A stretch of 31,525 nucleotides of DNA from a virus (taxonomy: Duplodnaviria > Caudoviricetes): IMG/VR virus record IMGVR_UViG_3300020045_003113, positions 1-31,525 of that record. One strand, written 5' to 3'. The notes beneath the pieces are model-generated. The model was not told where the DNA came from. It saw only the letters and a program-made list of their open reading frames with translations, and searched no databases. The position numbers and the translations under genes were made by a program. This document shows, piece after piece, positions 1,637-28,171 of the stretch. The first letter of the stretch is position 1. Every line of letters starts with the position of its first letter.

Positions 1637-4600
1637 TTATCTTCCTCCCGTTTTCATTTTATTATAGCGATTAAGTTCCTTCTTGGCTTCCTCACGGGCA
1701 ATAGCCTTGTAGATTTCAACTCCAGTATCTTTACCAAACTGTTGTGGATTGGAAGTACCTTCTGGAACTGCTACATTAATGTTGTAGACGTTAGAGTTCT
1801 TACCAGTTGGTTTAGTGGAGCTAGAAGTTGCAATACCTCCTACAAGACCACCAGTTGCATAGCCTTGAGTGTTCATTGTATTAAGGTTATCGAGTCCAAG
1901 TTGTGCTACTTGTTCCGGACTTATCACCACCTCACCATGACTTAGATTAATTAATCGGTTCTTTTTAGCCTTAGCAGAAGCTTTAGCATTAAGGACATAG
2001 CTACCAATTGGTATAACCTTTGGGATACTATCAGAAGTTCCAGTACCAGTCCCACGGATTTCACCCCCACCAGCGAAACCTGCCCCCGACATAAAGGAAC
2101 TAGCTCCAGAACTCATAACATTAGACACTCCAGCCCCTACACTACCACCACCAGACATACCACCAGTTATCATACTCATGATGCCTTTAACAGCCATCAT
2201 CTTTAGTTCATTCATAATCATTTCTTGAATCATCTTGGCAAAGTCGATTGCGATACCTCTGAAAGATTCTTTAACAGTTTCAGCTCCATTAGCCCAAGCA
2301 AGGAAATGTTCTGAAATACTATCTACAGTTTCATTCAAAGCTTGGTTGAATACCGCGTTCTTAGCGGCTTCAAGTTCTCGCATTGATTTTGTTAGACTTT
2401 GTATCTCTGTGTTTATCTGGTCTATTGCAGCAGGAGTTTGGTTTGGTATCTTTAATCTTTCTTCTGCTTGTTCTCGTAGTCTTCCAAAAGTATCCGATTG
2501 CGCTCTAGCGGATTCTTGTGCAACCATACTTCCTACAAACCTACCAGATACCCCATAACCAGCGGCTTGTGCCATTGGTAAGTTAGCAGCTTTAGCTTGT
2601 TCTAAACCTTGTTGGGCTTTAATGTTATCTTCTTCGTTAGAAATTCGTTCTTTAAGGGCAACTCTTTGTTTATCGATGTCAAGTTGTTGTTTAGCTAATG
2701 GGATAAGTTCCAAAGCTATTTGTGCGGCTCTCTTCTCTTCCTCCGTGATTCTACCAGAAGTATCTAAGATAACAAGTTTCGCTTTAGCTTCTTCTGTCGT
2801 AAGTTGGCGTTTTTGTTTGGCTGTACCAAGGTCAATTAGATTAGTTCGTTCAAGCTCACTTATAGTTCCTTCCTGTGCTTTAAATTCTAGTGTAGTTTTC
2901 TGTAAGTTTTCTACAAAGTCTAGGTAGACTGCTTTTCTAGTGTCTTCTAGGACTTGAATCTCAAGTTGAGTAGTTAATTGTTTCTGTTGGATAGCCAACT
3001 TTTGCTCTTCCATAGCATTATTGCTAATAAGTTGCCCCGTTATAGCTTTACTAACTGCACCAGCTCCTTTAGTTTCAGGTAAAGGTATACTACCCATCTG
3101 TGTCATAGCTTTTACAACTACGTCACCCTCCCCCGCCGATTCTTTGTAGAACTTTCCAGCTAGTAAATCTTGTCTATGTTGATAACCTTTGCTACCTACC
3201 TTACTACTACCTTCACCAGAGTTATAACCAGCAACTATTTGTCTAACTTGGAACTCAGTAGCTTTCCAGATGTCAATGCCAAGTGATTTAGCAATGTCAG
3301 AGACATACTTAGCAGAACCTTCAAGATTCTTGTCAGGATTATTACGGTCTGCTAGACTAGCCATACCATAGCGTTGACCTGTAGCTGGTGTAAACTGTAC
3401 TAAACCTTGTGCTTCGCCACTATTTGCAGTAGGATTTCCATCACTCTCTGCTTTAACTAAGGCTTTCAAGAAGTTAGCTGGTATATTAGCTTTAGCAGCT
3501 TTCTCAACTATCAAAGTATCCCACTGGTCAACCCCTTTAGTTAATTTACCAAGTGTTGAACTTACTAGGTTATTAATATCACTTTCAACATTAGCACTAT
3601 ACTGACCACGTTCCTGTATTGCCAAATTAGTCTGAACAACTTTCTTAGTTTGTTCATTATAGGCTTTTTGGAGTTCCTCCGTCTTAGCTGTGTTAGCTAT
3701 AATAGCTTCGGTATTAGTAGTTAAGGGTACATTCGCTAAAGTATCTACTGATTGTGTATACCCCAGCATACTTCCATTATGTGCTTGCTTATAACTCTCA
3801 AGTTCTTTGGAAAGTTGTGCTTCTCGGAAAGCTTTCCTATTAGCTTCTATAATCGGAGCTGAAAGTCTTCCTTGATTACGTTCTTCTTCCGCAGTTTTAA
3901 AGGTAAGTATAAGAGGTTTATCACCACCTTTAGTTTGTGCATCGTTAATACTAGCTAGTATATCCTTTTGTTTATCAAGCTCCTTAGTTTGTGCATCCAT
4001 ACTAACTAAGTTTTCTTCAAAGCCACGTCTTCTAGCTTCTTCCTGTTGCATAAGCTCTAACTTAGCAACATCACCGCGATGTTCTATTTCATACTTCTTC
4101 TCAAGTAAGTCAATCTGTTGATTATAGTAATCTATAATTGCAATTTCATTCCTAGCAAACTTCTTATCAAGTCCAGTCTTCACTACTTCAAGAGTTTTTA
4201 ATTCCATCTGAACTGCATTACCAATTCTAGCAATAGCACTTTGACTTATCTTAGTTTGTAACTCAAGGTTCTTTGAAAGCATAGCTTGGTTAGCTTCGGA
4301 AGCCATACCCTCGCCAGTTCCTTCAAACAAGACTTTTCTACTAGCAGCATAGGCTTCATCAATCTTATCTTGCTCTGCTTTTTTAAGACTTTTAGCTTTC
4401 TGTTGTTCAGCAGTAAGTTGTCCTGCCGCAGATTCAACTATCTTAGAAGTCAAAGCTTCCATACTAGCAGTCATACCTTGTTGCGCTAAGGAGCTAAAGC
4501 CACTATTCCACCCATCTTTAACACCTTTGAATACACCGCCAAAGACGTTATCATGTACATCATTGAAGGCTTGAAGACCTCCAGCTACACCTATGATAGC

Positions 4601-7579
4601 CGCACCAATCGTTTTATCAGTGTAGTTTCCTATAGCTTCAATACCTGACATTACGAAGTCTACTTTAGGAGATTCTTTTCTATAACTAGCACCTTTAGCA
4701 ACTGCTTCTTGATAACTTGTAATACCTTTAGTAGCTTCATCCCAACCAGTCTTTAGTATATCAAAAAGTTTAACACTCTCGCCATTAACGCTAACAGTAG
4801 CTTCCCCCACTTTATAGATAGCAGTACCAACAGCAACTACAGCCCCAACCCAACCAGCCCAACGAAGTGCTACTGCGCCTATACTAGCTAACTTCGCACC
4901 TACAGCAGACAGGGAGGTAACAGCAGTTGTTACACCAGCAGTAGCAAATGCGGCAGTTTGAGCTGCAACCGCGTAAACTCTAAAAGCTTCTGCAAGATGA
5001 ATACCAATAGCTACAGAAGCTACTCCAGCTACAGTAGCTATAAGTCCTAGATTCTCCCTAACAAACTGTAAGCTATTAGCAAATCCTTTCAAAGCTCCAA
5101 TCATATAAGTAGAAGTGGACTTATAGATACCCTGTGCCAGCCTTGTCCATTCATTATCTAATCTACCAATACTAGCATTAATACCTTGCGAAGCTATAGC
5201 AAAAGCATCATTACTGGCAAAGATTTGTTTATACATTGCGGCAAAACCAGCTACAGAATCTTCTGGTTTGATAAGACCCTTCTTCATCTTATCCATAAGT
5301 TGTGAAGTACTAAGATTAAGACTTCTAGCAAAGACAGCAACAGCAGCAGGTAACTGATTACCTAACTGACGTTTCAGCTCTTCCATCATTACCTGACCTT
5401 TAGCATACATCTGGTTAATAGCAACCAAGGCAGACTTCATTTTATCTGCTGGAAGATGTAAGACAGTACCTGCTTCTGTAATGTCATTAAAGATTTGGTG
5501 GATATTAGACATAGACTCCCCAGAGAACTTAGCACTAGCGGCAAAGTCTCGGAAAGACTCTTGTAGACTTAATAGTCTAGCACCTGTTCTATCTGCTAAG
5601 TTGTCTAGGAAAACAAACTGTTCTTCAATGTCTTTCTGTGTAACAAAGATTGCTTTGAAAACTGCATGAGTAGACTCAAGTTCCATACCCGTTGCTGGTA
5701 CAGATTCTAAACCTTGAAGCATACGTTGTCGTACACTGTTAAGAAGCGTATAGACTGACACTAATTTAACTGCCCGTACAATTAAACTATCGTGGTGTCT
5801 AGTTTGTTCTTCTAATTTAGTATTGGTCTTAGTCAAATCTCCTGCTAACTGTTGTTGTGCCGTTCTTTGTTTATTTAAACTTTCTTCGGCCGTTAAAAAT
5901 CCTTGGCGTAACTTAGCTAAACCAGCTTGGTCTAGTTTAGGGTCTAGTAACTTGGATTGAAACTTAGCAACTAACTTGTCATACGCTTTATCAATATCTT
6001 CTAGTTTGAATTTTATTTTTTGAAGACCTATATCCTCTGTAGAAGCCCCAGAAGCCTTCATTTGAGTAAGCTGTCCTGTTCTTGACCAACTAACTTGTTT
6101 ACCTGCTACCCAGCTAGAACCCTTAGTTTGTAATCTTTCTAAAGCTTTAAGTTGTTGCGCATAGGCTCTAACAGCCGCATCACCTTGTTCTACTGTAGTT
6201 TTAAGGGCATCTTTTTGAGTTTGTATATAAACTTTCCATTGGTTTATAATACTTTGTATTTGTTGAACAGAAGTAGCCGCTTGTATCTTACTAGAAAACT
6301 CACTGTTAGCTCTAGCAATATCAGATATAAGCTCTAGTTCTCTTTTCCGTAAAGTAGCGGCTTGTTGTAGCAAAGGGTTTATAGAAGCTAATTCTGTTTT
6401 AAGTCTATTTCTATTAGCTATCTCATCTTTGATAGTATTAACCATAGAAAGATTATCTTTCTCTAGTTTACTTGCACCCTCTCTAGCTTCTTTTACGTTT
6501 TTAATATACTCCCTAAAACTTGCATTTACTAAGTCTAGGGCTTGTTTAGCTAGTTTAAGTAAATTTTGCAGAATTTCCCAATCTTTTGTAGGAGGTACAT
6601 AAGGGATAATAGGTTTAGCTTGTGCAGAAACATTACCTTCTGACATTCTTTTTTGGTCTGCCGCTATTCTATCCCAGTTAGCTTTAATCTTAGCAGCCCA
6701 AGCTTCATTGTCAGCTTGACTTTGTTGAAGTCTAGCTTTCTCATCTTCTCTTAGTTTATTTTGGTAGTTTTTATGAGCAGAAAGTAGTTCAGCTATCTTA
6801 GACTTTTCCCAGTCTTCGTTATCTTTAAGGGCAGCTTTATGTATTGACGTATTCTCAAGGAATAGGGCTTTCATAGTATTAGCGTTAGTAGCTAGAGCTT
6901 GGTTATAAGCTGTTAAGGCAGCCTCTTTAACACTTAACTCGTCTGTAGCTAACTTTGCAACTCTATTTAGTTCTTCATTTTCAAATTGTTTTTGTTGATT
7001 TTCAAAGTCTTTCCATCTGCCACGCATCTTTGCAAGCAACTCTTCCTCCTGTTTAAGAATGAAATTAGCTAACTCTTGTTCATCTTTTTTACGGCGTGCA
7101 GAACTTTCAGCACTGATTTTAGTCTGTTCTTTTAAAGCTTTATTTTCAGCTTCTAGTTTATTTTTATAGTCAGACTGTGCCGCAGTTGTATCGGCTTTTC
7201 TTTGTGTTGGGGTTCTACTAGCTAATGTAGACTCGATTCTAGTAAACAAACCAAAACCAGACTGCATTTGTGCAACTTGTTTGGTCTGTATTTGTTGTAA
7301 TCTCTGCTCAAGTAATTTACTTGCCTTGGTTATTTGAGCTGTAGTTTGTGCAGCCATTTTTCCAAGGTCAAAACTAGGTTTCATAGTTCCTAGTATTTCT
7401 TTTATCTTTTTCAAATCATTGATATATTTGTCTAACTCTTTTGGAGCTATCTTACCAGCATTTTTAGCAAACTTTTGTTGAATAGTGTCTAACTCAGTAA
7501 AACTTTTGGTTACTTCACCTACAGAAGCTATTGCTCCAGAAGAATCTAGCTTTAATATAAAAGTTACGTTAGTAGCCAT
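1637..7579 (-). CDS. Tail tape measure protein (~1980 aa) with internal lytic transglycosylase (SLT) domain
   Basis: Long coiled-coil, Ala/Lys/Gln-rich protein. Tape-measure motif QMYAKGQVMMEELKRQLGNQLP. SLT motifs KAESDGNP, AQGLVQF and AGYNSG (~3130-3530). C-terminal FAGGG..GTGTSDSIP. Start moved to ATG 7579, which follows GGAG. Confidence 0.93.
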   Translation of the reverse strand: MATNVTFILKLDSSGAIASVGEVTKSFTELDTIQQKFAKNAGKIAPKELDKYINDLKKIKEILGTMKPSFDLGKMAAQTTAQITKASKLLEQRLQQIQTKQVAQMQSGFGLFTRIESTLASRTPTQRKADTTAAQSDYKNKLEAENKALKEQTKISAESSARRKKDEQELANFILKQEEELLAKMRGRWKDFENQQKQFENEELNRVAKLATDELSVKEAALTAYNQALATNANTMKALFLENTSIHKAALKDNEDWEKSKIAELLSAHKNYQNKLREDEKARLQQSQADNEAWAAKIKANWDRIAADQKRMSEGNVSAQAKPIIPYVPPTKDWEILQNLLKLAKQALDLVNASFREYIKNVKEAREGASKLEKDNLSMVNTIKDEIANRNRLKTELASINPLLQQAATLRKRELELISDIARANSEFSSKIQAATSVQQIQSIINQWKVYIQTQKDALKTTVEQGDAAVRAYAQQLKALERLQTKGSSWVAGKQVSWSRTGQLTQMKASGASTEDIGLQKIKFKLEDIDKAYDKLVAKFQSKLLDPKLDQAGLAKLRQGFLTAEESLNKQRTAQQQLAGDLTKTNTKLEEQTRHHDSLIVRAVKLVSVYTLLNSVRQRMLQGLESVPATGMELESTHAVFKAIFVTQKDIEEQFVFLDNLADRTGARLLSLQESFRDFAASAKFSGESMSNIHQIFNDITEAGTVLHLPADKMKSALVAINQMYAKGQVMMEELKRQLGNQLPAAVAVFARSLNLSTSQLMDKMKKGLIKPEDSVAGFAAMYKQIFASNDAFAIASQGINASIGRLDNEWTRLAQGIYKSTSTYMIGALKGFANSLQFVRENLGLIATVAGVASVAIGIHLAEAFRVYAVAAQTAAFATAGVTTAVTSLSAVGAKLASIGAVALRWAGWVGAVVAVGTAIYKVGEATVSVNGESVKLFDILKTGWDEATKGITSYQEAVAKGASYRKESPKVDFVMSGIEAIGNYTDKTIGAAIIGVAGGLQAFNDVHDNVFGGVFKGVKDGWNSGFSSLAQQGMTASMEALTSKIVESAAGQLTAEQQKAKSLKKAEQDKIDEAYAASRKVLFEGTGEGMASEANQAMLSKNLELQTKISQSAIARIGNAVQMELKTLEVVKTGLDKKFARNEIAIIDYYNQQIDLLEKKYEIEHRGDVAKLELMQQEEARRRGFEENLVSMDAQTKELDKQKDILASINDAQTKGGDKPLILTFKTAEEERNQGRLSAPIIEANRKAFREAQLSKELESYKQAHNGSMLGYTQSVDTLANVPLTTNTEAIIANTAKTEELQKAYNEQTKKVVQTNLAIQERGQYSANVESDINNLVSSTLGKLTKGVDQWDTLIVEKAAKANIPANFLKALVKAESDGNPTANSGEAQGLVQFTPATGQRYGMASLADRNNPDKNLEGSAKYVSDIAKSLGIDIWKATEFQVRQIVAGYNSGEGSSKVGSKGYQHRQDLLAGKFYKESAGEGDVVVKAMTQMGSIPLPETKGAGAVSKAITGQLISNNAMEEQKLAIQQKQLTTQLEIQVLEDTRKAVYLDFVENLQKTTLEFKAQEGTISELERTNLIDLGTAKQKRQLTTEEAKAKLVILDTSGRITEEEKRAAQIALELIPLAKQQLDIDKQRVALKERISNEEDNIKAQQGLEQAKAANLPMAQAAGYGVSGRFVGSMVAQESARAQSDTFGRLREQAEERLKIPNQTPAAIDQINTEIQSLTKSMRELEAAKNAVFNQALNETVDSISEHFLAWANGAETVKESFRGIAIDFAKMIQEMIMNELKMMAVKGIMSMITGGMSGGGSVGAGVSNVMSSGASSFMSGAGFAGGGEIRGTGTGTSDSIPKVIPIGSYVLNAKASAKAKKNRLINLSHGEVVISPEQVAQLGLDNLNTMNTQGYATGGLVGGIATSSSTKPTGKNSNVYNINVAVPEGTSNPQQFGKDTGVEIYKAIAREEAKKELNRYNKMKTGGR

Positions 7580-7601: not shown

Positions 7602-7631
7602 TAAAAAAGAGGGAGTAGCTAACTACTCCCT
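7602..7631 (-). terminator. Rho-independent terminator-like hairpin just upstream of the tape measure gene
   Basis: Minus strand AGGGAGTAG-TTAG-CTACTCCCT followed by CTTTTTT. Confidence 0.75.
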
Positions 7632-7650: not shown

Positions 7651-8094
7651 CTATGAATTACTAGCAGTGTTTTGAATAGCTTGCAAAGTAGCAGAACGAA
7701 GAGCATCACGGTATGGAAAGCTATTCCAAAGCATATCAAAGTAAACATCCAAATCACCGTTAGCACGAACAGATATAACTTTAACAGTTTTTCCATTGTC
7801 ATCTTGCCCTTTTACGTTCTTGAAATCTACAATATGTTCTTTAACAAAAGCTTTAACATCTTCTGCTTCATTAACAATAGAAGATTCCCAGATACTAGAA
7901 CTACCGTCTTTAGTGGCTTCAAGTGTTTGTTGATTAGACTCTGCAATCTTATCGAACTTAGCTAAATGCTTATTAGCTTCTTGAATTGGGTATCGTTTAA
8001 ACTCAACTTGTAGTTGGTCGGACTTACCAGCAGCATCTTTAACTAAGACATTAATAAGGACAGAAGGTGTTTGTAAGACTAAATCATATTTCAT
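7651..8094 (-). CDS. Tail assembly chaperone, gpG-like (147 aa)
   Basis: Between tail tube and tape measure genes, typical size, GGAG RBS; paralogous to the N-terminal half of 8411..9136. Confidence 0.7.
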   Translation of the reverse strand: MKYDLVLQTPSVLINVLVKDAAGKSDQLQVEFKRYPIQEANKHLAKFDKIAESNQQTLEATKDGSSSIWESSIVNEAEDVKAFVKEHIVDFKNVKGQDDNGKTVKVISVRANGDLDVYFDMLWNSFPYRDALRSATLQAIQNTASNS

Positions 8095-8111
8095 TTTGGT
8101 ATCTCCAATTA

Positions 8112-8390
8112 TTAAGGGTTGAAAGCGGGTTTTACTAATTCGTTAGGACTATAAGGATTATAGTCCTGTGCATATCCAGAAGGTGATTTTACAAGATGCC
8201 TATCTAAAGTATCTGCATAGTGTTCTTCCTGTACACCATCTAACTTACCTCCTAGGTATTCTACTATATATCTAGGATGACCCGTCGTAGGATGTATAAA
8301 TAAACCAACTACTTTAGCTGGTAGTACATCATAACCTAAAGTAACTTTAACTAAACTATCTAAGCCATATTTAAAAGGATTACTTGACAT
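8112..8390 (-). CDS. Hypothetical protein (92 aa) inserted between the two chaperone genes
   Basis: ORF with GGAGATAAAG-ATG at 8390; no recognisable family. Confidence 0.7.
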   Translation of the reverse strand: MSSNPFKYGLDSLVKVTLGYDVLPAKVVGLFIHPTTGHPRYIVEYLGGKLDGVQEEHYADTLDRHLVKSPSGYAQDYNPYSPNELVKPAFNP

Positions 8391-8410
8391 CTTTATCTCC
8401 AAAGATTTAA

Positions 8411-9136
8411 CTATTTATCGGGTTTCATCGAATCATATCCAGCTTTTATAAGCGGTATAAACGACAACGTATTTGTAAGGCTTAAGTTATTTTCTTTAGC
8501 TAATTCTATAAGAACAATTGGATTCAAAATACCCCATTCATTAGTATAAAGTTTAGCAATGTTGTAAAGTTTAAGATAAGGAACATTTGCTTTTATTAAT
8601 AAGTTTGGAAAATTAGAAGTCTTAAGCTCCTCTTTCTTTTTCTCCACAACCTCTGAAACCACTTCATCCTCAAAATTCATATAAAGCCCTAAACTTTCTT
8701 GTAATTCTGCGGTTTCAGCTTTCTGCATACTTTCAGTATCTTGCTTCCCATAGTCTAGTTCATATTGGTATTTACCAATTTCAAACAAATTCTGTTCTTG
8801 CAAACCTTTTCTATGAATATGTTCCATATTTTGAAGGATGGAAACGTAATTAGCTAGGATTGCTTTGAAATAAGGGAAGCTACTTAACAACACCTTTAGT
8901 ATAGCAGTTTCAAAGGAATTGGTCAAGTTTCCTACCGAATCGGACACCTTATCAACATAAATGATGTTACTTAAAAGGATAGAAACCTGTTTACTATAGT
9001 CCGCTTGAATTAATTTCTTTAAGATTTGTCTAGCAGTTTGTGACTCTACGAGCTTAAAAGCTACTACAAAGTCAACTTCCCAGTTAGCATCTTTAGCCTT
9101 CAAAGACACTTCAATAAAGTCTGGTACAATTTGCAT
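8411..9136 (-). CDS. Tail assembly chaperone, in-frame gpG-T-like fusion (241 aa)
   Basis: N-terminal ~105 aa aligns with 7651..8094 (KDA, V.FK, SFPY..A......QN). The C-terminal ~130 aa has the size and character of a gpT extension. Directly after the tail tube gene. Confidence 0.62.
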   Translation of the reverse strand: MQIVPDFIEVSLKAKDANWEVDFVVAFKLVESQTARQILKKLIQADYSKQVSILLSNIIYVDKVSDSVGNLTNSFETAILKVLLSSFPYFKAILANYVSILQNMEHIHRKGLQEQNLFEIGKYQYELDYGKQDTESMQKAETAELQESLGLYMNFEDEVVSEVVEKKKEELKTSNFPNLLIKANVPYLKLYNIAKLYTNEWGILNPIVLIELAKENNLSLTNTLSFIPLIKAGYDSMKPDK

Positions 9137-9150
9137 ATTATCTCCATAAT

Positions 9151-9186
9151 AAAAAAGGCTGGAAACCTTTCAGTAACCAGCCTTTT
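9151..9186 (-). terminator. Rho-independent terminator after the major tail gene
   Basis: Minus strand AAAAGGCTGG..CCAGCCTTTTTT. Confidence 0.8.
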
Positions 9187-9204: not shown

Positions 9205-11166
9205 CTATTTAAGCATAATCTTTGTATAACCACCATAGGCAAAGACTAAATCAAATGCAGCACGGTTATTTTGTGCCGTTTGTTTATAATCTTTCAACGT
9301 CAGTTTAGTAATTTCAACTTCAACTGTATTACCTCTAGTGCCATCTTGTTTAAAGTTAAACCAAAACTCTTTACCAAGAGAATCTTCTGCATTAAACTGG
9401 TCAACGATGTTGGTGTTAGCTTCTGGTTCAATAATGGTAATTGTAACCTCACCAGCTTTAGCAGAAACATCCCAAGTATCTTCACAACCAGTCATGATAC
9501 GTTGATGTTCAAAACCATCCAAGTTACTACCAGTTAGCTTAAAGAAACAAATGTTGTTCAAGACAAGCCCAGAACCTGTTTCCATTAAACTAGCATTACG
9601 GATAGTATCAGCTTTCAGAACATAAGCCGCATCAGCTTTTTGTTGACTGATTGGATATGACAGTTCAGGAATGTTAGCAACATCCCAGACATTACCATGA
9701 TAGTTGAAAGCTACTTTAGGACGTTGACCAACTTCAAGTGTTAAGTCTAAGGTAGCAACTGCATCAGTTACGATAATAGCTTTCTGAGTGCCAACTAATT
9801 GGTCAGAAGACTTACGAACATGAAGTGTTAAAGTTTCATTACTAGCATATTCGTTAGTGAACTCAATACTAGCTACTACAGGAATAAGTGATGCAGTGGT
9901 AAATCCAACGGGTTGAACAACGGCACTAGCAGCATCCAAGTAGGTTTTTGCAGCATAAGTACCAGTAGTTAAGAGTGGAGCTAAGTTAGCTTCTCTATCT
10001 TCTGCTTGGAGATAGAAGTCTCTTGTCTTATCAAACAAAGTTTGGAACTCTTGTTCTACTGCTGGGTTACTGTTGGTAATTGCATTGATATAAGTAACGG
10101 TATCAATCAAAGTAGCTAAAGTTGCTACGTCAATTAGTGCAACATCAGCGTCAACAATTAAGTCATCAGCTTTCAAAGCTACAACTAAAGCTGCACCAGT
10201 TGGGTCGCCAATCAAGTTAATCTGTAAGTTATGCCACAGTTCTTTAATAGCAACACTTGTTGCAGTAACTTTAGCAATGATGTCCGCAGTTTCAGCTCTG
10301 GCAGATGTTAAGTTAGCAAGCAAAGTGCTAACAGCAGCGTTACCAGAAACACCTAAATCCAGTAAGTCCATCTTCTGCGCATTACGTTGTGCATTAACTA
10401 AAGCATTTTCAATCCAGTTAGTTTCAGTATAACCAACTTGTAACTGTGCTTCTGCTTTTCTGTACAAATCATACAAAGCATCTGTGATTGATAAACCAGA
10501 GTCCAAGATTGCATGAAACTTAGAAGCTTCCATGAAAGGGATGATAGGGATAGTGTTAATAGCACCAGTAGTTTGGTCATTAACATCTAAAGTAGCGAAA
10601 GCAGCTTGCGTACCAGCTAAAGTCAAACTAGCTACATTAGTATTAGCTACTAAAGCAGTTGCTAAGATAGTAGAAGGGTCTTGTGCATTAATAACATAAC
10701 TAAAAGCTACGTTCGGAGTTCCTGTAAAGGTACTATGTAACTGAGTTGGACTGCCGCCACCAAGATAGGCAACGAGTTCTTCTGCTAGTTGGTTAGGGCT
10801 GGCTAAAGAAGTAACAGTCATAGTTGCCCCAGCAAAGATGAAAGTACCAGATGATACACTATCAAGGAACTTTAATACTGCTGTTTCATAACCATAGATA
10901 GGTCGTCCAAACAAACTACCTAAACGTGGAACAATTGTCTCAGCTTTGACATCACAATACTTATCGGTGATAGTAATAGCAACTTCTCGTTGCATAATGT
11001 TACCGATGTACTGTTCTTCCTGAGACGTAATGTTATTCTCATAAGATAAGGATAGTGCTGCAAGTGCATGGGCAGAAGATAGTGTGTTAGGAATACCTGC
11101 ACCACCTGTTTGCACTGCACCATATAAGGCTACTGCCTTTTCTGTAAAACGTACGTTACTAGCCAT
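9205..11166 (-). CDS. Major tail tube protein with two large insertions (653 aa)
   Basis: Sits after the tail terminator, before the chaperones, and is followed by a terminator. Beta-rich tube-like N-terminus (1-90) and C-terminus (~432-653, LDLTLEVGQRPKVAFNYHG) flank the inserts. Confidence 0.8.
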   Translation of the reverse strand: MASNVRFTEKAVALYGAVQTGGAGIPNTLSSAHALAALSLSYENNITSQEEQYIGNIMQREVAITITDKYCDVKAETIVPRLGSLFGRPIYGYETAVLKFLDSVSSGTFIFAGATMTVTSLASPNQLAEELVAYLGGGSPTQLHSTFTGTPNVAFSYVINAQDPSTILATALVANTNVASLTLAGTQAAFATLDVNDQTTGAINTIPIIPFMEASKFHAILDSGLSITDALYDLYRKAEAQLQVGYTETNWIENALVNAQRNAQKMDLLDLGVSGNAAVSTLLANLTSARAETADIIAKVTATSVAIKELWHNLQINLIGDPTGAALVVALKADDLIVDADVALIDVATLATLIDTVTYINAITNSNPAVEQEFQTLFDKTRDFYLQAEDREANLAPLLTTGTYAAKTYLDAASAVVQPVGFTTASLIPVVASIEFTNEYASNETLTLHVRKSSDQLVGTQKAIIVTDAVATLDLTLEVGQRPKVAFNYHGNVWDVANIPELSYPISQQKADAAYVLKADTIRNASLMETGSGLVLNNICFFKLTGSNLDGFEHQRIMTGCEDTWDVSAKAGEVTITIIEPEANTNIVDQFNAEDSLGKEFWFNFKQDGTRGNTVEVEITKLTLKDYKQTAQNNRAAFDLVFAYGGYTKIMLK

Positions 11167-13201: not shown

Positions 13202-13570
13202 CTACTTCTTTAATTGAAAGTGAACTCCGTCACGAAAATTAATCCAATCCCCGCCCCATTCAATAGCTATTCCAAGTTCTTTAGAGGCTTGTTTCATAGC
13301 GACAGCAATTTGTTCGTAGTATTTCCAAGTCCAATCAACTTTACCATTTATGTAAGCTACTAAGTCAACGGCTTCACCAATGATATGTCTGCTCTTGAGT
13401 GTTTGTGACTTACCAGCTTTAAACAACTCTTTCTGTCTTTCGACAGAACGTAAACCTTCTGTTACACCAAAGTCAATGGGAGAAATTTCAATAGCTTTCT
13501 TAACAACAGCTACTAATGCAGGGTCTACCCCTTTCATCTTAGCTATTGACTTATCACTTAACTTAAACAT
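13202..13570 (-). CDS. Endolysin, M15-family L-Ala-D-Glu peptidase (T5 lysin-like)
   Basis: DFGVTEGLRS..RQ..SRH..G.AVD..WGGDW..DGVHFQL zinc-peptidase motifs. Confidence 0.93.
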   Translation of the reverse strand: MFKLSDKSIAKMKGVDPALVAVVKKAIEISPIDFGVTEGLRSVERQKELFKAGKSQTLKSRHIIGEAVDLVAYINGKVDWTWKYYEQIAVAMKQASKELGIAIEWGGDWINFRDGVHFQLKK

Positions 13571-18300: not shown

Positions 18301-18584
18301 TAAAATCTCCGATTAACTAATAAAGGAACACTTGCTCCAGTACGGTACATAACTTCTGTATTCCCTTCTAATGTATCAATCATTTCCAGAAGTTCTTTCC
18401 GAAGTTCTTTAAGGTCGCTTAAGGATACTTTGTTATTGTCGTAGACTCTACGAAACTCCATAGAGCCTATCTCTACTCTTTGCAATAACTTCCCTTGCAT
18501 CATTAGGTCGATAGCAGCATTGACTTTAGCTAAGTCAGCATAGGCTATTGTGAGTTTTTGTTGTCTAGTTATTGTCGTTGACAT
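18300..18584 (-). CDS. Head-tail joining protein, gpW-like (94 aa)
   Basis: GGGAGG-ATG at 18584; helix, beta-hairpin, helix (L.DLKELRKEL) pattern; immediately before the portal. Confidence 0.7.
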   Translation of the reverse strand: MSTTITRQQKLTIAYADLAKVNAAIDLMMQGKLLQRVEIGSMEFRRVYDNNKVSLSDLKELRKELLEMIDTLEGNTEVMYRTGASVPLLVNRRF

Positions 18585-19395
18585 CTTCTTCGCCTCCCAT
18601 AGGTAATGCACAGGCACAACCACCTATGTCATGTTTATCTTCCTCAGCTTTTCCTTGCTCAAGGTATTCTTCTCGGTACTCTTTCATACTTAGGTAGCGT
18701 TTCTTACCATTGGTAGTTTTCTTTAGGAAAGGTAAACCACCAATAGCTAGAACTTCCTGTTCTTTTGCTTCATGTTCAGCATAGCGTTCAGGGAGCTTCT
18801 CAAAGAGTAGTTTGAACTGCCCAAGACCCGCTTTTACACAGAATCCACCGCAGTTATTATGTGGTAAACCTAGTGTGTAGAGATAAGGTCTTCTGATGCC
18901 AAACTGTTCACTAAAGTCTTTACTAACAATAAGCCCTTTCTCAACTAGAAGACTTCTGTAAGTCTTTGGGTACATAGTCTTTTGAATGTTTGTAAGTCTA
19001 TGATGCTCACTAAAATCAATACCAACGTGTACTTCACAAGTTAAGGATTGTAGCGGAAAGCCATATTCGTAAACAGTAATTCCGTAGTTAGCAGGTAGCC
19101 ACTCTTTATTAATTAAATCCCTTTTAAGAACTCTGGAGCAAAGGTCTATTCTTGAATTAGCTATAAATCTCTGTTCTTTAAATAATTCCCAAACAGTTTT
19201 TTCCCGACTTATCCGAACAAATCTACAATCCAAAAACCTAACACACTCGTCAACAAACCTATAAAGGTCAGGGTCTTCTGTTAAAGTATCACAAAAAAGA
19301 AGAACTACATTCTCTTTCCCAAATTCCTGAACACAGTGATAGGCTTCTGCAAAGCTACCAATTCCTCCGCTAAAACTAACTATATGGTCTGTCAT
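18565..19395 (-). CDS. PAPS-reductase-like/PP-loop adenine nucleotide alpha-hydrolase with Cys cluster
   Basis: VSFSGG.GS, FCDT..ED.DLYRF, CSRVLK, HNNCGGFCVKAG and C-terminal GGCAC. Confidence 0.8.
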   Translation of the reverse strand: MTDHIVSFSGGIGSFAEAYHCVQEFGKENVVLLFCDTLTEDPDLYRFVDECVRFLDCRFVRISREKTVWELFKEQRFIANSRIDLCSRVLKRDLINKEWLPANYGITVYEYGFPLQSLTCEVHVGIDFSEHHRLTNIQKTMYPKTYRSLLVEKGLIVSKDFSEQFGIRRPYLYTLGLPHNNCGGFCVKAGLGQFKLLFEKLPERYAEHEAKEQEVLAIGGLPFLKKTTNGKKRYLSMKEYREEYLEQGKAEEDKHDIGGCACALPMGGEEDVNDNN

Positions 19396-19787: not shown

Positions 19788-21752
19788 TTAATATAGATAG
19801 TTTTCAAGTTGCCGCCAATGTTCTGTAGTAAAAGAAGGAATCCCAATCGCGTATGCAGAATGCAGAACATTCTTCTCAGCATCCATCGCTTCCTTCCTTT
19901 TACCACTTACTAACTTATAAATCTCTCTTTGTGTTCCACTTCTAACATCAATAAGTTTCCTACATGAAGTCATTTGCTCCTCATAAAGTCCGTAACTTTG
20001 TTCATTAAAGTAGTACCTATCTTGATTACATCCTTCAACTAAGTTAAGACTAACTCTACGAAGTATCTCATTATGAGCTTTGTGCGCTCCAATGTTGTAA
20101 ACCTTGACACCCATAGTCTCTGCAAGTGTGCGTCTTGCTGACTTGTAGGTTAATATATCCATCTCAGAAGGTTCATTATAGATTTCATCATGGCTAAAAC
20201 GAAGTTCATCACTACCTTTAGTAGCAAAGAAATGTTCATACCCTTGTATCTGATTTATCTCTTGGATGAATCGGTAAACAAGTTCTGTATTCCAACCAGA
20301 GTCTATACTTCCTGCTGAGATTCGCATCTCTTTACCACTTGCGTGTTGGTAAACTCCAGTAAAGATATTCTTTAGTTCTGTCCAAACTGGGTCTTGGTAG
20401 TTTTGGGTGTTTCCGAAGATTTCTCTCCAAGTTACTAACCAACTATTACCATTCCTTCCCCAAGCTCTTATAACATAAGCAAAGCGGTTAATCTGAACAT
20501 CAACTCCCATAGTTAAGATAAGCCCATCACTAGGTACTATACCTTCTGGGTAGTTTCGGCGCAACTTACACATCTCTTCAACCGTTAAGGCACTTACCCC
20601 GCTGGCATAACTCATACCTCTGGAGTTATTATAAAAGGTTTGCATTAAACCTTCCTTACCTCTTGCAAGGTCTTGTTCAGCAAGTATTCTTTTCTTTGCA
20701 AGTTCTATAAAGTGGCTACCAGCAAAAGGGCTTAGAAGTTCAGAGAAGATAAAGCCAAAGTTATCAACTATCTCAGGTTTCTTAGGATGCCAACCTTTAG
20801 AGAACTTACCTGTATGGTCAGTGAACCCGTGTTTTTTACCTGCGCGGATATTAACATCTTTTTGTTCAAAAGTCCATTCAGTGTTACAACTTGGGCAGTA
20901 GAACTTAGCTGACATAGGGTCATGCTTTCCGTAGATGTCATCTATCTTACGGTCATTAAATTCCGCATATCTTATGCAATCAAAACTTGTACCATCCATA
21001 GGGACTAGTGTAAAACATTCATGACATTCAGCTTTAAAGACAAGTTGATTAGAAGTCTTAATAGCATTTTCTACAAGAGAAAAGTCCATGTGGGTAGGAG
21101 TTCCACCGAAGATTAGTTTCTTCATACTTGTAGGTACAAGCTTCTGACGTTCTTTTAAGTTAGAAAGAACATCACCTTGTCCTGCAATGTTATTCTTCAA
21201 ATCATCTGGTTCTTCAATCTCAATGTAAGGTACATTATTTGACTTGAGAGAACCAATACTACCAAGTGTACGAAGTCGTAAGCTACCACCTGAGAATGAA
21301 TAGTCAAAGATAGACTTCTTATTCTCGGACATTCCAACGTCAACTAAACCTGACATAATTGGAGTATTCTGTAAGAACCATTTAAACTTTTCCTTACCAA
21401 AGGTTCTTGCATCTTCTTTAGTTGGGAAGCCTAGTAGCATATTACAAGGTTGGGTATGGATTCTTCTTCCTCGGTAGTTATTAATAGTCTCCGTCCACGC
21501 TATACGAGCAGATTTCTGGGAACAGATGATTGGTATTTGTAAGTTATCAAGACAGTCATAGACATATTCCATATAAGGTGTATAGTCTGGGTCAAACTTA
21601 CCAACACCAAAGGAAGTTTCCGCACTATCCATACTACGATATTTCTTTGCCCATTCTAAGGTGGAAATACGAAGTATAGGTCTACAAAGTTTAAGACAGG
21701 TTGCAATTAACTTTCGTTCAGCTATGTTTGCTAAAGTAGCTTTAAATTGCAT
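19788..21752 (-). CDS. terL: Terminase large subunit, lambda gpA family
   Basis: TPYM, Walker A KSARIAWT, Walker B IEIEEPD, GGTPT, CHEC/CPSC, MGVDVQ, IDSG and EAMD nuclease motifs. Confidence 0.95.
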   Translation of the reverse strand: MQFKATLANIAERKLIATCLKLCRPILRISTLEWAKKYRSMDSAETSFGVGKFDPDYTPYMEYVYDCLDNLQIPIICSQKSARIAWTETINNYRGRRIHTQPCNMLLGFPTKEDARTFGKEKFKWFLQNTPIMSGLVDVGMSENKKSIFDYSFSGGSLRLRTLGSIGSLKSNNVPYIEIEEPDDLKNNIAGQGDVLSNLKERQKLVPTSMKKLIFGGTPTHMDFSLVENAIKTSNQLVFKAECHECFTLVPMDGTSFDCIRYAEFNDRKIDDIYGKHDPMSAKFYCPSCNTEWTFEQKDVNIRAGKKHGFTDHTGKFSKGWHPKKPEIVDNFGFIFSELLSPFAGSHFIELAKKRILAEQDLARGKEGLMQTFYNNSRGMSYASGVSALTVEEMCKLRRNYPEGIVPSDGLILTMGVDVQINRFAYVIRAWGRNGNSWLVTWREIFGNTQNYQDPVWTELKNIFTGVYQHASGKEMRISAGSIDSGWNTELVYRFIQEINQIQGYEHFFATKGSDELRFSHDEIYNEPSEMDILTYKSARRTLAETMGVKVYNIGAHKAHNEILRRVSLNLVEGCNQDRYYFNEQSYGLYEEQMTSCRKLIDVRSGTQREIYKLVSGKRKEAMDAEKNVLHSAYAIGIPSFTTEHWRQLENYLY

Positions 21753-21753
21753 A

Positions 21754-22884
21754 CTATAACTCCGCTTCTAGTGTGATTGTCCTGCCGACTGCATCACAGT
21801 TAAGTACAACTGCACGGGAAGCTATTGTTGCTACCATACTTATACTAAGGGTAGCTCTGTCTAAGCCTACTATCGCTGTGGATAAGGTACTTGAAACATT
21901 GGTAGCTCCATCTGCACCAAGCCATCCTGCACTAAAGGTAATGGTTGGTTTTTTACACTTCTGTATATAGAGTAGCACAACACTAGCACTTGTTCCACTT
22001 GTAGCTACACCAGACGCTACTCCTTGATTAGTAGTTTCTGTTTTTATCACTTCAAAGTATCTTTTACAAATTGATAACTCTGTGTGGTAAGCACGTTGTT
22101 CAAATTTAGTTGGAAGACTTCCGAGTTCTAACTGAACTAATGTTAGTGTTCCTGTGTTAAACTCTACTTGTGTACTAATGCCCCCAGTTATGCTAGCAGT
22201 AACACCACTTGCACTATAACTACCACCAGCAACTTTACCTTGTGCCGTACCAGTCCAACTTAGTGTATGAGTGTTCACACCATAAGGTATATTAACATCT
22301 TCGATTATCTGTATAAGTGAACCCGCCGTTATAGTTATGGTTGTTAAGCCATTAACAGTTGCAAAAGTATAAGTACAACCAGAAGCACCAGCCTTCCAGC
22401 GGTCATGCCCGTAGACACCGCCAGCTAATGTAACTGTACCAGAAACAGCGCGTTGGTTGATTGTGAATGCTGGGTTGAGTAGTAGGTTTTTACCAACTAA
22501 GTCAACTAAACCTGCTACTGTAATATCTTTATCTGGGAACGTATATGTTCTAGCAGCTGTATTTGTATTATTTAAGAAACTTGTAAATGTATCAGCCGCA
22601 TTTTTGAAGTTAATCTTAAATAAGGTAAGACCAGCGTAGCCGTTACTAACATCTTTGTTACCATATAACTTCTCTATAGCACTAAGGATTGTATCCGCAG
22701 CCGTGATAGTGCCTGTGGAAGCTGTGAACCCTGTTAGTACCCTAGTAAGCGGGTCAGACATACCGCCTATTGCTGTTTGCAAGGCTTCTATATCAAACTT
22801 AGCGGCAGCAGCCAAGGCTCTTAGCACACTTGAAGTTACTAAGGAATTGGTTAAAGGTTTTGTAGCATCAATTGTACTAGCCAT
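21754..22884 (-). CDS. Side tail fibre/receptor-binding protein
   Basis: Follows gpJ; Thr/Ala/Gly-rich; NLLLNPAFTINQR..DRW..VQLELG..T.FE.R..EL..CKRYF fibre domain. Confidence 0.75.
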   Translation of the reverse strand: MASTIDATKPLTNSLVTSSVLRALAAAAKFDIEALQTAIGGMSDPLTRVLTGFTASTGTITAADTILSAIEKLYGNKDVSNGYAGLTLFKINFKNAADTFTSFLNNTNTAARTYTFPDKDITVAGLVDLVGKNLLLNPAFTINQRAVSGTVTLAGGVYGHDRWKAGASGCTYTFATVNGLTTITITAGSLIQIIEDVNIPYGVNTHTLSWTGTAQGKVAGGSYSASGVTASITGGISTQVEFNTGTLTLVQLELGSLPTKFEQRAYHTELSICKRYFEVIKTETTNQGVASGVATSGTSASVVLLYIQKCKKPTITFSAGWLGADGATNVSSTLSTAIVGLDRATLSISMVATIASRAVVLNCDAVGRTITLEAEL

Positions 22885-22896
22885 GTTCTATCTCCG

Positions 22897-25278
22897 TTAA
22901 AATTGCATGGGTGAGTGCCCATCATAATAGTTATTAGTATCATAGGTTGCAGTTGTATCGTACCGAATTTCTGCAAAACTATAGGTAACTTGTTTACTTG
23001 GTAAGTCTAATGAACTTATGGCTATTATTGTGAAGAAATAGGTTACATTATCTTGAAGTATTGTTGCAACAAAGTCAAAACTCTTTGTATTTACTATGCT
23101 AGTTCCAGTTACACCTAGTGAGGTTGTATAAGTTACTTGATAGGTATAAGTCCGCCCAGCTTCTTGAACGTGTTCCCATGTTATTACAAAATGTTTATGT
23201 GTTAAGTCACTTAAGTTTGTAAAATCTTGTAACTGTATGTTTGTAACACTTGCTGTTTTACCTTGTATAACTTCAACAAAGTTATTTGTACTGGGTAACG
23301 TAACTACTTGTTCTATGAAGTCATATTTTCTAGCATCATACTTAGTTGCTTCTATTAGATAAACATCATCTTCTTTAGTTAGGTTAGTTACTTTATACGG
23401 TGTCGTTCTTTCGGATTTCTGGATAAATAAACTTTGGTCAACCAACGCTAGTGTTCCTGTGTACGCCGCAGATACTTCGGTTAAAACTCCTGTAACTTCA
23501 TTAAGCATTAGTTCTATCAGTTCCCCAATAGAGTTATAAACCATAATAGTAGTTATACCCGTTAAAGTAATAGCTCTATCTAATACTAAGTTAATACCAA
23601 CTGGACTTGAAACATAACTAACAACCCTACCAGTCTCTACTGTATCAAATAAATTACTATCATGTATTCTTATTAAACTACCTTTATGAAGCATAACTGC
23701 TTCTATTAGACAGCGAAATTGTACTATACCATCACCACTTAAATCAATCATAAGTGAGTCCCAAAGCAAGTTTCTTCCCTTTCTTATTCCTGCTGAGACA
23801 CTGGCACAACCCAACATTAAGAAATCTGAACTTGTATAGCCATAAAGGTCTACGAAGTGTCCTCTAGGTAATGTAAGAAAGTCTTCCAAGTCATCGACTA
23901 ATACTGTAATTGTTCTTGTTCGGTTTCTATTGTCAATCTCTTGGATTGTTACATTTATCTGAGTATTATTATCGGTGATGTCAGCACTAGCATACTCGAA
24001 CAGACCTTCAAGGACATTCTGATTGGTGAACACTGGGCTTTGATTTATTTCCTCCGTAGTGAAACGTCTATCCCATACTATAGATACTAAACCACCATAC
24101 TCAATAAGTTCAGCATTACCAACTGTTAGTAGGTCATCCCTAGCTATTTTAGCATCTTTACGTTCAATGAATTGTCTATTGAGTGTGTATCTTGGTTCTG
24201 TTAAGACTGCTGAACTTGGAGTTTCCCTGTAAAAAAGTAACTCATCACAGTATCGTGCATATTCTTCAAAAGTAAAGTGAGCTAAGTGTTCTCTTGGAAT
24301 ATCACAACCTCGTGGATAGCGAATACCATCCACTTCAAAGAATAGCCAATCACTTAGGAAGTTATAGATTACCCAACTTAGATTGTTTGAATAGTTATAA
24401 ACTGGTAAACCAGCTACAGTATTGAATGTACCATCCCAAGGTATTCTAGTAGGGTCAGTTGGGGATACCCAGTTTGTTCCATCTGAATATAACTTAGTAT
24501 TAGGGTCATAATAACTTCTCCAAGGAAGCATTAGTTTAACACCAGAACCTCTAATAGATACGTTTGGTATTCTATTAGCTACTTCTGTTGCATCTTCTAA
24601 GCGGATAGCTATAAGAGCTGAACCTGCATAGTTACTAACATTCTCTGTACTATAGTACGTTATATGTGGCACAGACATAACTACAGTGTCATCTAGTGGA
24701 AACGGTGAAACAGCACTATGTGCTATTCTAACACCCCATTCATGGTCGCCTATGTTAGTAACAGGTCTATTTACCCTAAAGACTGCTTGATATAGTCCGT
24801 CACTTTTACCAACAATAACAGGGCTATTAACAAGAGTGTAACCACCTAGCAAATAGCTATCAGCAGTAGAGATGTCAAAGACTACCATAGCATAAACAGA
24901 GTCACCTTCTGGACTTGTATAAACCACAGTGCTAAAGTTTACTGCAATATCTATATATTCGTAAGCTCCATCAATCGGTCTAACTACACCAGCGGGGTCT
25001 TCATAAGGTAACGGAACATCTACCGCTTCTGTAATCGCTGTAGAGTTAAGATGTGCAATCTGTCCTTGATTTACTTCTCCGAAGGTAAAAGACCAACTAG
25101 CTGTAAACTCAGTGATACTTACATCATCAATATAGATGTCTTCGATGTTAGTTATCTCACCTTCACTAACTACAAAAAGTAAGTACAACGATTGTGTAGT
25201 CTTTAAGTTAGCAGAGTAACTAACTGGTTGGGCTGGTGGGCTTGCACCTTCTCCATATATATTTGGTAATGTAGTCAT
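22897..25278 (-). CDS. Central tail tip protein, lambda gpJ-like (~793 aa)
   Basis: VSEGEI..IYIDD, WDGTF..YSNN..W, YCDE..EPRYTLN, FT..NV..G.F.Y and one C-terminal FN3-like domain. ATGA coupling to gpI. Confidence 0.9.
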   Translation of the reverse strand: MTTLPNIYGEGASPPAQPVSYSANLKTTQSLYLLFVVSEGEITNIEDIYIDDVSITEFTASWSFTFGEVNQGQIAHLNSTAITEAVDVPLPYEDPAGVVRPIDGAYEYIDIAVNFSTVVYTSPEGDSVYAMVVFDISTADSYLLGGYTLVNSPVIVGKSDGLYQAVFRVNRPVTNIGDHEWGVRIAHSAVSPFPLDDTVVMSVPHITYYSTENVSNYAGSALIAIRLEDATEVANRIPNVSIRGSGVKLMLPWRSYYDPNTKLYSDGTNWVSPTDPTRIPWDGTFNTVAGLPVYNYSNNLSWVIYNFLSDWLFFEVDGIRYPRGCDIPREHLAHFTFEEYARYCDELLFYRETPSSAVLTEPRYTLNRQFIERKDAKIARDDLLTVGNAELIEYGGLVSIVWDRRFTTEEINQSPVFTNQNVLEGLFEYASADITDNNTQINVTIQEIDNRNRTRTITVLVDDLEDFLTLPRGHFVDLYGYTSSDFLMLGCASVSAGIRKGRNLLWDSLMIDLSGDGIVQFRCLIEAVMLHKGSLIRIHDSNLFDTVETGRVVSYVSSPVGINLVLDRAITLTGITTIMVYNSIGELIELMLNEVTGVLTEVSAAYTGTLALVDQSLFIQKSERTTPYKVTNLTKEDDVYLIEATKYDARKYDFIEQVVTLPSTNNFVEVIQGKTASVTNIQLQDFTNLSDLTHKHFVITWEHVQEAGRTYTYQVTYTTSLGVTGTSIVNTKSFDFVATILQDNVTYFFTIIAISSLDLPSKQVTYSFAEIRYDTTATYDTNNYYDGHSPMQF

Positions 25279-25961
25279 ACAAATCGCATCCAATTAGCTG
25301 GGTAGTTCATACCTTCTGCAAAAGTCCCAATGGGAATAACATCTGGGTATATTGGTAATGTTTGCTCCAGCCGAAGTCCTATACGAACACCACCAAATAG
25401 GCAGTTGCCAAAGACTACAGGAACACTCCCCCCTTGTTCAGTTATATTAGGAACTCCGTTGTATAGCTTTGATAAATTTGAAGGGTCTTGGTCTTTGTCT
25501 AGCTTATTCTGCGGAGTGAGCGCACGCACTAACATACCAAGTGCAATAACTAAACCTACAGTAACAACAGTAGCTACAGCATACCCAGCTATGGCAGTTC
25601 CTAATCCAACAGTAGCAACTAAAGTACCTGCTGCGGCGGCGGAAGCTACTGCGGCAGAAGTTGTACCTGCTATAGCTGCCATAGTTCCCATAGCTATACT
25701 ACTAAAGACAGCTTCACCAGAGACCTTAGGGCAAACAACCAACACATCATAACTGCTAATATCATATTCCAACATAGTTGGTAGGATTGGATAGGCTTTC
25801 TCCTTGACACCTTCATATACAGTGTAGCAAAGTTCTCTTTCAGATACTTCCTTAAATAAAGCTGGCTTATTTACTCTAAGATAATCATATAATTGTACTA
25901 AGTTTACCACTTGTAGGTTAAATCTTTCAACACCTTTGTCTGAATAGTAAATAACTTGCAT
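25275..25961 (-). CDS. Tail assembly protein, gpI-like
   Basis: P.V.G followed by an Ala-rich hydrophobic stretch; NITEQGGSVPVVFG motif. Confidence 0.88.
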   Translation of the reverse strand: MQVIYYSDKGVERFNLQVVNLVQLYDYLRVNKPALFKEVSERELCYTVYEGVKEKAYPILPTMLEYDISSYDVLVVCPKVSGEAVFSSIAMGTMAAIAGTTSAAVASAAAAGTLVATVGLGTAIAGYAVATVVTVGLVIALGMLVRALTPQNKLDKDQDPSNLSKLYNGVPNITEQGGSVPVVFGNCLFGGVRIGLRLEQTLPIYPDVIPIGTFAEGMNYPANWMRFV

Positions 25962-25962
25962 C

Positions 25963-26751
25963 TTATTCTCCTAAATCTGGATGTCTGTAAACCTTTGTTA
26001 TCTTGTTAAGATAGAGTTCAAGTGGTTCAACTTTTGATATTTCTCCCTGATTAAGCAACATATTATCACCTAGATAAATCATAGCGTGGTTATCCTTGAA
26101 GCCAAGGATTGAGGTAATTAATAAGTCACCTTTCTTTAATTGTCCAGTCTTAGTAATATCAATTAGGTTGTTCTTCTTAATGGAGGCTGTAACATTATCT
26201 TGTTGGAGTAGGTTATGTTCTTGCAGTTTGTTATCTTCAAGAACTCTCTTAACTAAGTCTGCCCAAGACTTTTTCTCTGTAAGGTGGTCTGTTAATGGAA
26301 TCTTAATTTCAATTCCAAACTCAAAATGATAGTAATCCCTGATAAGACAACCGCAGTCAGAGACTCCAAAGATGTAGGGTCTGTTGATGTAATCTTTAGA
26401 TGGTTCTGGTGGTACTTTTAAAGGTGGGTAATAACGGCTTCCATCATAGGCAGAGATATATAATGGTAGTCCTACTTCTGTAGCTAGTACAAGGTCTGCA
26501 AGACTTGGTGTTTGTATATGTACATGACTTTTACCAGTATGTGAATGAATGAGTGCATAAATAACTTCTCGCTCTCTGGTGAATTGTAATGGGTCTATTT
26601 CAAATGATTTAGTCTTATCTTCTGCAATGTTTACTTGTTCTATGAAAGAACCGTCGTAGTAGATGAAACCGCACATTTCATTTGGGAAAGCCCTGCGAGT
26701 TGCTAGTTCTATTTGAAGTAAAGCTGAATTTGAGAGTTGCATATTATTCAC
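25963..26751 (-). CDS. Tail assembly protein, gpK-like (JAB/MPN + NlpC/P60)
   Basis: PNEMCG, HSH..PS..D, G..DC..LIRDYY and NHAMIYLG motifs. Confidence 0.92.
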   Translation of the reverse strand: MNNMQLSNSALLQIELATRRAFPNEMCGFIYYDGSFIEQVNIAEDKTKSFEIDPLQFTREREVIYALIHSHTGKSHVHIQTPSLADLVLATEVGLPLYISAYDGSRYYPPLKVPPEPSKDYINRPYIFGVSDCGCLIRDYYHFEFGIEIKIPLTDHLTEKKSWADLVKRVLEDNKLQEHNLLQQDNVTASIKKNNLIDITKTGQLKKGDLLITSILGFKDNHAMIYLGDNMLLNQGEISKVEPLELYLNKITKVYRHPDLGE

Positions 26752-27196: not shown

Positions 27197-27217
27197 AAGT
27201 ATCTCCTCTTATAATTA

Positions 27218-28161: not shown

Positions 28162-28171
28162 TCATAAGCCT

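Follow-up and report, generated by a model that had tools for sequence, protein, structure and literature searches.

Two separate, homologous genes, ORF241 and ORF147, appear to take the place of the -1 frameshift in the tail module of the uncultured phage analysed here, so that the long (GT) and the short (G) tail assembly chaperone would each have a gene of its own; we put the probability of this overall explanation at about 80%. The window, i.e. the whole stretch of DNA analysed, is a 31.5-kb virus record with a CheckV completeness of 37%. That the two are separate, homologous genes for the GT and G chaperones is very probable on sequence grounds. On this reading ORF241 would correspond to the frameshift product with the shift made permanent, and ORF147 to a G that stands alone. 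Importance attaches to this locus because the G/GT frameshift is among the most conserved recoding events of phages, its retention being usually explained by the fixed ratio of the two products. With a lineage that lacks the frameshift beside sisters that have it, the reason for its retention becomes testable.

Gene order and conservation of the locus

The minus strand of the window carries a lambda-like module made up of terminase, portal, protease, major capsid and endolysin genes, four small genes and a 653-aa ORF, followed by ORF241, an ORF of 92-96 aa, ORF147 and the tape measure gene (Table 1). The initial annotation of this DNA had the coordinates, sizes and strand order of these ORFs right, with the GT-like gene first and an unrelated ORF between the two. 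ORF241 and ORF147 both lie between the tape measure gene and the gene of the probable tail tube protein. The 653-aa protein has no family match in Pfam or PHROGs; in all six sister loci tested (see below), the gene 5' of G encodes its homologue.

Tube, long, short and tape measure genes follow one another in this order in the window and in all eight viral loci that were fetched (9/9), and the long gene still precedes the short one in L013 and L014, where the long protein is 33% identical. These nine are the loci of known order: L012 is a second record of the same phage and was excluded from locus counts, while seven distant fused proteins are represented by protein sequence alone.

The middle ORF has a homologue in one of the eight other loci (L004, 67%); its position is occupied by unrelated ORFs in three of the eight and is empty in four (gap of 7-18 nt). 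It is a variable insertion, incidental to the chaperone system, and a role for it in that system was rejected. Other insertions were seen nearby. L011 has a 207-aa ORF that looks by eye like a homing endonuclease (5749-6372) between GT and G, and the promoter-like site described below is broken there. In L003 a 74-aa ORF (5045-5269) is inserted between tube and GT and extends over the GT start; no GGAG precedes that start, and translational coupling is possible there.

Table 1. Features of the chaperone locus (positions in the window; the regulatory sites are predictions).
Feature	Position	Strand	Basis or remark
Tape measure protein, downstream context, predicted client	1637-7579	-	Pfam TMP_3 (PF20155) E 1e-23; PHROG 2335 E 1e-47
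Terminator-like hairpin, predicted	7602-7631	-	Between ORF147 and tape measure gene
ORF147, probable free G-type tail assembly chaperone (short form)	7651-8094	-	147 aa; profile matches to sister G
GGAG 8 nt ahead of ORF147 start	8103-8106	-	Spacing count
Middle ORF, inserted	8112-8402	-	96 aa; likely start ATG 8390, giving 92 aa (8112-8390)
ORF241, probable long-form tail assembly chaperone (GT type, fused in frame)	8411-9136	-	241 aa; family alignment
T domain of ORF241 (aa 117-241)	8411-8788	-	Against sister -1-frame T: P 98.9, E 2.8e-17
N116-L117, at the -1 slip junction of the sister lineage; non-slippery here, reading continues in frame	8786-8791	-	Alignment
G-like domain at aa 1-116 of ORF241, divergent and shortened	8789-9136	-	Against sister G: P 96, E 1.3e-9, 100 columns
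sigma70-like promoter site, predicted, facing ORF147	8898-8926	-	TTGACC-17-TATACT, TG before -10; 10/12 match
GGAG 5 nt ahead of ORF241 start	9142-9145	-	Shortest of 16 window genes with GGAG
Hairpin and U run, terminator-like, predicted	9151-9186	-	Between tube gene and ORF241; folds; long loop, not returned by terminator scan
Probable tail tube protein, upstream context	9205-11166	-	653 aa; by position, plus homology to sister loci

A frameshifting sister lineage

Sister loci were collected by scanning viral contigs with a motif taken from six short T-only proteins; as the motif favours the family, the resulting count of 32 loci is not a census. Thirty of the 32 match the profile of the second half of ORF241, and removal of five duplicates left 25 distinct loci. 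In 24 of these, G ends on an in-phase heptamer (A AAA AAC in 23, G GGA AAC in one), a T frame lies at -1, and a long gene comes next; the 25th is cut off, and none of the 25 is fused. Relatives with a single frameshifted locus, which the initial annotation had anticipated, do therefore exist.

Profiles of sister G, of sister T and of the predicted frameshift product were built from nine sister loci and compared by hhalign. Taken as a whole, the ORF241 family aligns over 222 columns, slip junction included, with the predicted sister -1 product (P 99.5, E 5e-23), while the ORF147 family matches sister G (P 98.7, E 2e-16). The two halves of ORF241 match sister G and sister T separately (Table 1), and the cross controls for these matches gave E 0.19 and 0.25. 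Single window proteins set against the sister profiles are also matched, at E 1e-14 for ORF147, and for ORF241 at E 4e-14 (aa 145-234) and 4e-5 (aa 8-64). Because the sister -1 product aligns end to end, junction included, we read ORF241 as a GT probably fixed in frame, and the proposals that ORF147 is of G type, that ORF241 is of GT type and that the C-terminal part of the latter is a T domain are all borne out.

At the junction itself, QNLFEIG of ORF241 aligns to KNLIEAG of the predicted sister product; among 19 members of the ORF241 family, N116 and F155 are invariant, and L117 and G121 nearly so. It had been suggested that the NS* at the end of the short copy and the NL of the long copy are a vestige of the ancestral slip site. 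The NL half of this idea stands, as NL falls on the sister slip junction; the NS* half does not, as the short copy has a variable end that lies about five residues short of the terminal KN of the sister G.

A more remote comparison was made with a T1-type reference set of 127 loci (120 from a motif scan and seven GenBank phages, T1 included). A complete G with a -1 overlap is present in 79 of the 127; the other 48, for which the DNA retrieved did not include a G, were dropped. The T1 record labels these genes as tape measure chaperone and frameshift product. The ORF147 family matches T1-type G from the 79 loci (P 90, E 1.5e-6), as does the N-domain of ORF241 (E 5e-4), and sister G and T match their T1-type counterparts at E 6e-5 and 6e-4. 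Only a weak match links the ORF241 C-domain to T1-type T (P 1.3, E 0.039), with none of 40 shuffles scoring as high.

Direct similarity of the two proteins and family searches

The initial annotation had aligned the two proteins at both ends of the G domain. Both of the alignments that it quoted are present in the sequences, but BLASTP of the single proteins finds the C-terminal one only (22 columns, 36%, E 0.012), and profiles of the close families (12 and 24 relatives) reach E 0.016. Since direct similarity amounts to only E 0.012-0.016, that evidence taken alone is marginal. With deeper families the match becomes collinear over 98-99 columns, at E 0.0015 and then, over 99 columns, at E 2.2e-4, a score that none of 40 column shuffles attained; the proposed homology of the two N-terminal domains is thereby upheld. 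The deeper ORF241 family comprised 18 representatives from a full profile search (ten full length, two fragments and six short C-terminal-only matches). Counting itself, ORF241 has 24 full or near-full relatives, and the ten full-length representatives measure 225-247 aa. A sequencing error behind the fusion was rejected on account of these 24 in-frame relatives and a 100% match in the second record.

Predicted models of both proteins show the same order of elements in the G part, namely a hairpin, two helices, strands and two helices. A fold search with the ORF147 model (pLDDT 82) against PDB representatives gave a best Z of 5.1. The matches to 3klu (Z 3.8, rmsd 6.8, 97 aligned, rank 4 of 48,161) and 3fgx (Z 3.7, rmsd 3.5, 82 aligned, rank 6 of 48,161), which we take to be chaperone structures, are within noise.

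Pfam and PHROG scans placed neither window protein in a chaperone family, and a six-frame search of their own genome with PF08809 and PF08748 returned no matches. PF08748 appears weakly in 6/12 members of the ORF147 family (best E 0.025), and a distant ORF241 relative matches it at E 0.0066 (17.1 bits, below the cut-off of 21.1); the curated Pfam cut-offs for PF08748 and PF08809 are not reached by the window proteins or their relatives, PF08809 giving no match. In the ESM Atlas, ORF147 leads to PF08748 (0.91, 25% of members), and nothing above 0.9 is returned for ORF241. Against 50,697 GenBank phages, tblastn with a distant fused member and with the tube protein gave no match, and with a short T-only protein gave three weak ones (E 0.3). 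The motif scan of genome contigs yielded 23 loci, none of which matches the GT profiles, and no host was found; two have weak G matches (E 3e-4 and 8e-4), and the one examined looks like chance. A viral scan for distant fused loci returned seven matches, two of them already known and five due to chance.

Absence of recoding signals

Neither ORF241 nor ORF147 contains an in-phase X XXY YYZ heptamer in the window, and beyond the stop of ORF147 seven codons are open in the -1 frame and four in the +1 frame. The same holds beyond the window: among the nine split loci, none has a heptamer at the GT junction or at the G end, and none has a T frame after G, as had been claimed for the short copy. Scattered heptamers occur elsewhere in four split loci, at positions that are not shared, and the frames past the G stop are open for 3-26 codons and are not T-like. 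A one-locus arrangement of the lambda type, with a heptamer and an overlapping -1 T, is thus absent from 9/9 split loci and present in 24/25 sister loci. Read-through from G into the tape measure gene was also considered and rejected, as an in-frame stop lies three codons ahead of the tape measure ORF.

Comparison with known systems

Like the gpG/gpGT pair of lambda, as described in PMC5009743, the two window genes sit between the tube and tape measure genes and comprise a short version with G and a long one with G+T. The sister loci share the lambda-type heptamer and -1 T frame; the window does not, having two genes, the long one first, and no slip site. Whereas the G domains of the two lambda forms are identical, those of the window families are about 17% identical; and whereas the lambda ratio is set by slippage, that of the window cannot arise in this way.

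Remote profile matches link the T1-type pair to the window, for both G domains and, at a weak level, for T, and 70 of the 79 reference G proteins end in KN or GN, like the sister loci. T1-type G is Pfam PF08748 (Phage_TAC_4), with the window proteins below the Pfam cut-offs, and T1-type T is DUF1799 (PF08809). The QWR...GLDY motif of T1-type T is missing from the window T, and the window architecture, unlike that of T1, is split.

T4 uses separate genes, 26 and 51, for its chaperones. T4-like phages reportedly make short and long chaperones without frameshifting, to judge by the title of a 2022 study by Vladimirov, Gautam and Davidson (doi 10.1016/j.virol.2021.11.003). A two-gene chaperone system without a frameshift is, by that title, not new in principle. 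The likeness to gp26/gp51, two separate related genes for a short and a long form, is one of architecture only; the window differs in being a lambda-like siphophage module with frameshifting sisters and an embedded promoter-like site, and Pfam and PHROG scans of its proteins gave no match of the gp26/gp51 type. In some subclusters of the Microbacterium cluster EA phages, two chaperone ORFs are apparently expressed separately with no evident frameshift, and other subclusters do frameshift (one passage of PMC7302621); that passage is silent on paralogy or a fused GT, unlike what is seen in the window. Our literature search, with most subscription papers beyond reach, found no description of a fused GT with a free G in a siphophage.

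Possible control of the G:GT ratio

Lambda requires about 30 G per GT, according to PMC5009743. Two kinds of signal could bias the window genes towards G: a predicted promoter and terminator-like hairpins, all of which the initial annotation had missed, leaving its account incomplete, and the spacing of the ribosome sites, to which it had ascribed the ratio.

The promoter-like site inside ORF241 occurs in the same register, at 10-11/12 and as the best in the gene, in seven of eight loci; L013 keeps it. It is scored against the sigma70 consensus, an assumption that may not suit the host. The Leu codon within it is TTG in 7/8 loci, against a genome usage of 10-17%; its summed score of 79 exceeds all of 20,000 synonymous redraws (maximum 77); and among 9,090 aligned sites in the tube, GT and G genes it ranks first, with 6/7 loci against 5/7 for the runner-up. 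Per-locus P values are modest (0.045-0.28), the eight loci are related to one another, and in L011 the site is broken. Over 7 kb, 21 sigma70-like sites were found versus 19.3 expected. None of the eight sister loci examined has a shared site, their best ones scoring 9-10 at differing places. We consider the chances even that this predicted promoter is functional; it would then likely transcribe G alone. Separately, L002 (5185-5225) and L011 (4930-4965) have promoter-like hexamers across the stop codon of the tube gene, immediately ahead of the hairpin; the pattern is inconsistent between loci.

The hairpin between the tube gene and ORF241 is likely ancestral, because similar hairpins precede G in the sister loci: a strong hairpin with a U run is present in four of the eight shown, with weaker ones in the rest. 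The terminator-like hairpin after G is found in 7/9 loci and is missing in L013 and L014.

As for the ribosome sites, 22 window starts were surveyed, two of them misplaced, and 16 genes have a GGAG. The spacings of 5 and 8 nt noted earlier are real, and the spacing is shorter for GT than for G in all six loci with GGAG at both genes, by 1-3 nt. The ratio might then come mainly from translation initiation, through this spacing and the hairpin at the GT start, with the promoter-like site being a by-product of protein conservation. Such an account has a genuine if lesser chance, as the ORF241 spacing is the shortest among the surveyed genes and the per-locus promoter statistics are unimpressive. 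It is weakened by the smallness of the differences, by the lack of GGAG before GT in 3/9 loci (L013 and L014 have none at either gene), by the retention of a rare TTG codon, and by the sharing of the promoter-like site between proteins that are 33% identical. By our estimate the spacing difference is too small for a lambda-like 30:1 ratio, and ribosome-site spacing is probably secondary in setting G:GT. Tentatively, and at somewhat less than even odds, we propose instead that the lineage swapped recoding for transcription, by a duplication, the freezing of GT in frame, an embedded host-type promoter that over-supplies G, and terminators that fence the unit.

Origin of the two copies

A tree of 39 rows and 119 columns was calculated, in which the fused N-domains form one group (97/94). 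Tandem duplication within one genome is the origin that we moderately favour, because a fused-only intermediate should be lethal: a TP901-1 mutant producing only the fusion makes non-infectious particles (PMC4493119), and a fused-only ancestor is accordingly expected to be non-viable. A different history, in which fused GT and free G derive from different related phages and one gene was acquired by recombination, seems to us rather unlikely, although several observations point its way. The best tree unites the fused N-domains with sister G (99/98), not with free G; the mean identity of ORF147 is 26% to sister G versus 17% to ORF241's own G domain; and the spot between GT and G often takes up foreign ORFs. 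However, the AU test rejects neither alternative (p 0.351 with the two copies held together, and 0.357), long branches and deletions, such as relaxed constraint would produce, mark the fused N-domains, and the root, set by an outgroup only 11-14% identical, falls inside the free-G group, apparently as an artefact. The earlier claim that duplication replaced recoding is consequently upheld in part: the frameshift signal is gone, but the best tree keeps the copies apart, and the AU test (p 0.35) does not choose.

Proposed working of the system and its significance

By analogy with lambda and TP901-1, many G would coat the tape measure protein, while in the few GT the G domain would bind the tape measure protein and T would recruit the tube protein. 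The fused GT would be insufficient by itself; the retention of a free G would then make sense. GT, in its ancestral place behind the tube-gene terminator, would be kept at low output by read-through and a poorly spaced ribosome site; the promoter within its coding sequence would add G-only transcripts terminated by the hairpin upstream of the tape measure gene, giving high G. Under the tandem duplication favoured above, the shift would have become fixed in copy one and T lost from copy two.

The G-like domain of ORF241 might instead be vestigial, without tape measure binding, the gene being a T-only factor. It lacks about 30 aa relative to free G, diverges fast and has low model confidence at aa 68-74; yet the domain is present at full length in all ten full-length representatives, with P88-Y89 and I58 conserved, and we hold this to be quite improbable. 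Least credible, and very improbable indeed, is a hidden frameshift, by which the fused gene would give a G-length product through recoding into a stop, or ORF147 would be extended: non-canonical shift sites exist and in 3/9 loci 26 codons after the G stop are open in the -1 frame, but the open stretch spans 3-15 codons without T likeness in the other six, the junction and G end lack a heptamer throughout, and the junction codons vary synonymously.

With separate genes for G and GT, the two G domains are free to diverge, and their comparison may show what the G domain of GT must keep. Annotators should bear in mind that a long 'hypothetical' gene preceding G can turn out to be GT. Should the transcriptional swap be true, exchanging cassettes with the sisters would test whether the ratio alone is what preserves the frameshift.

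Other features of the window

IMG/VR lists inverted terminal repeats for the record, which may be partial or rearranged. In six sister loci the probable tail tube protein has 409-433 aa; the window protein, with 653 aa, owes its greater length to a central insert at roughly aa 100-400. This insert differs strongly even between L013 and L014 (tube proteins of 531 and 546 aa, 57% identical), whose neighbouring chaperones are at least 97% identical, and it might serve as a variable decoration on the tail surface. The tape measure protein, of about 1,980 aa, has a lytic transglycosylase domain at aa 1357-1460. Tail tip genes (L, K, I, J-like and tail fibre, by PHROG matches; 19788-27742) lie upstream of both the terminase and the head genes, well away from the tape measure gene, in contrast to the order in lambda. 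A phosphoadenosine phosphosulfate reductase-family gene (18565-19395; PHROG 424, E 8e-29) lies between the terminase and portal region, and an M15-type endolysin (13202-13570) between the major capsid and tail completion genes, a place from which it is missing in L002 and L013. Four plus-strand ORFs stand at the end of the window (27868-31408), among them one for a 610-aa probable beta-propeller protein.
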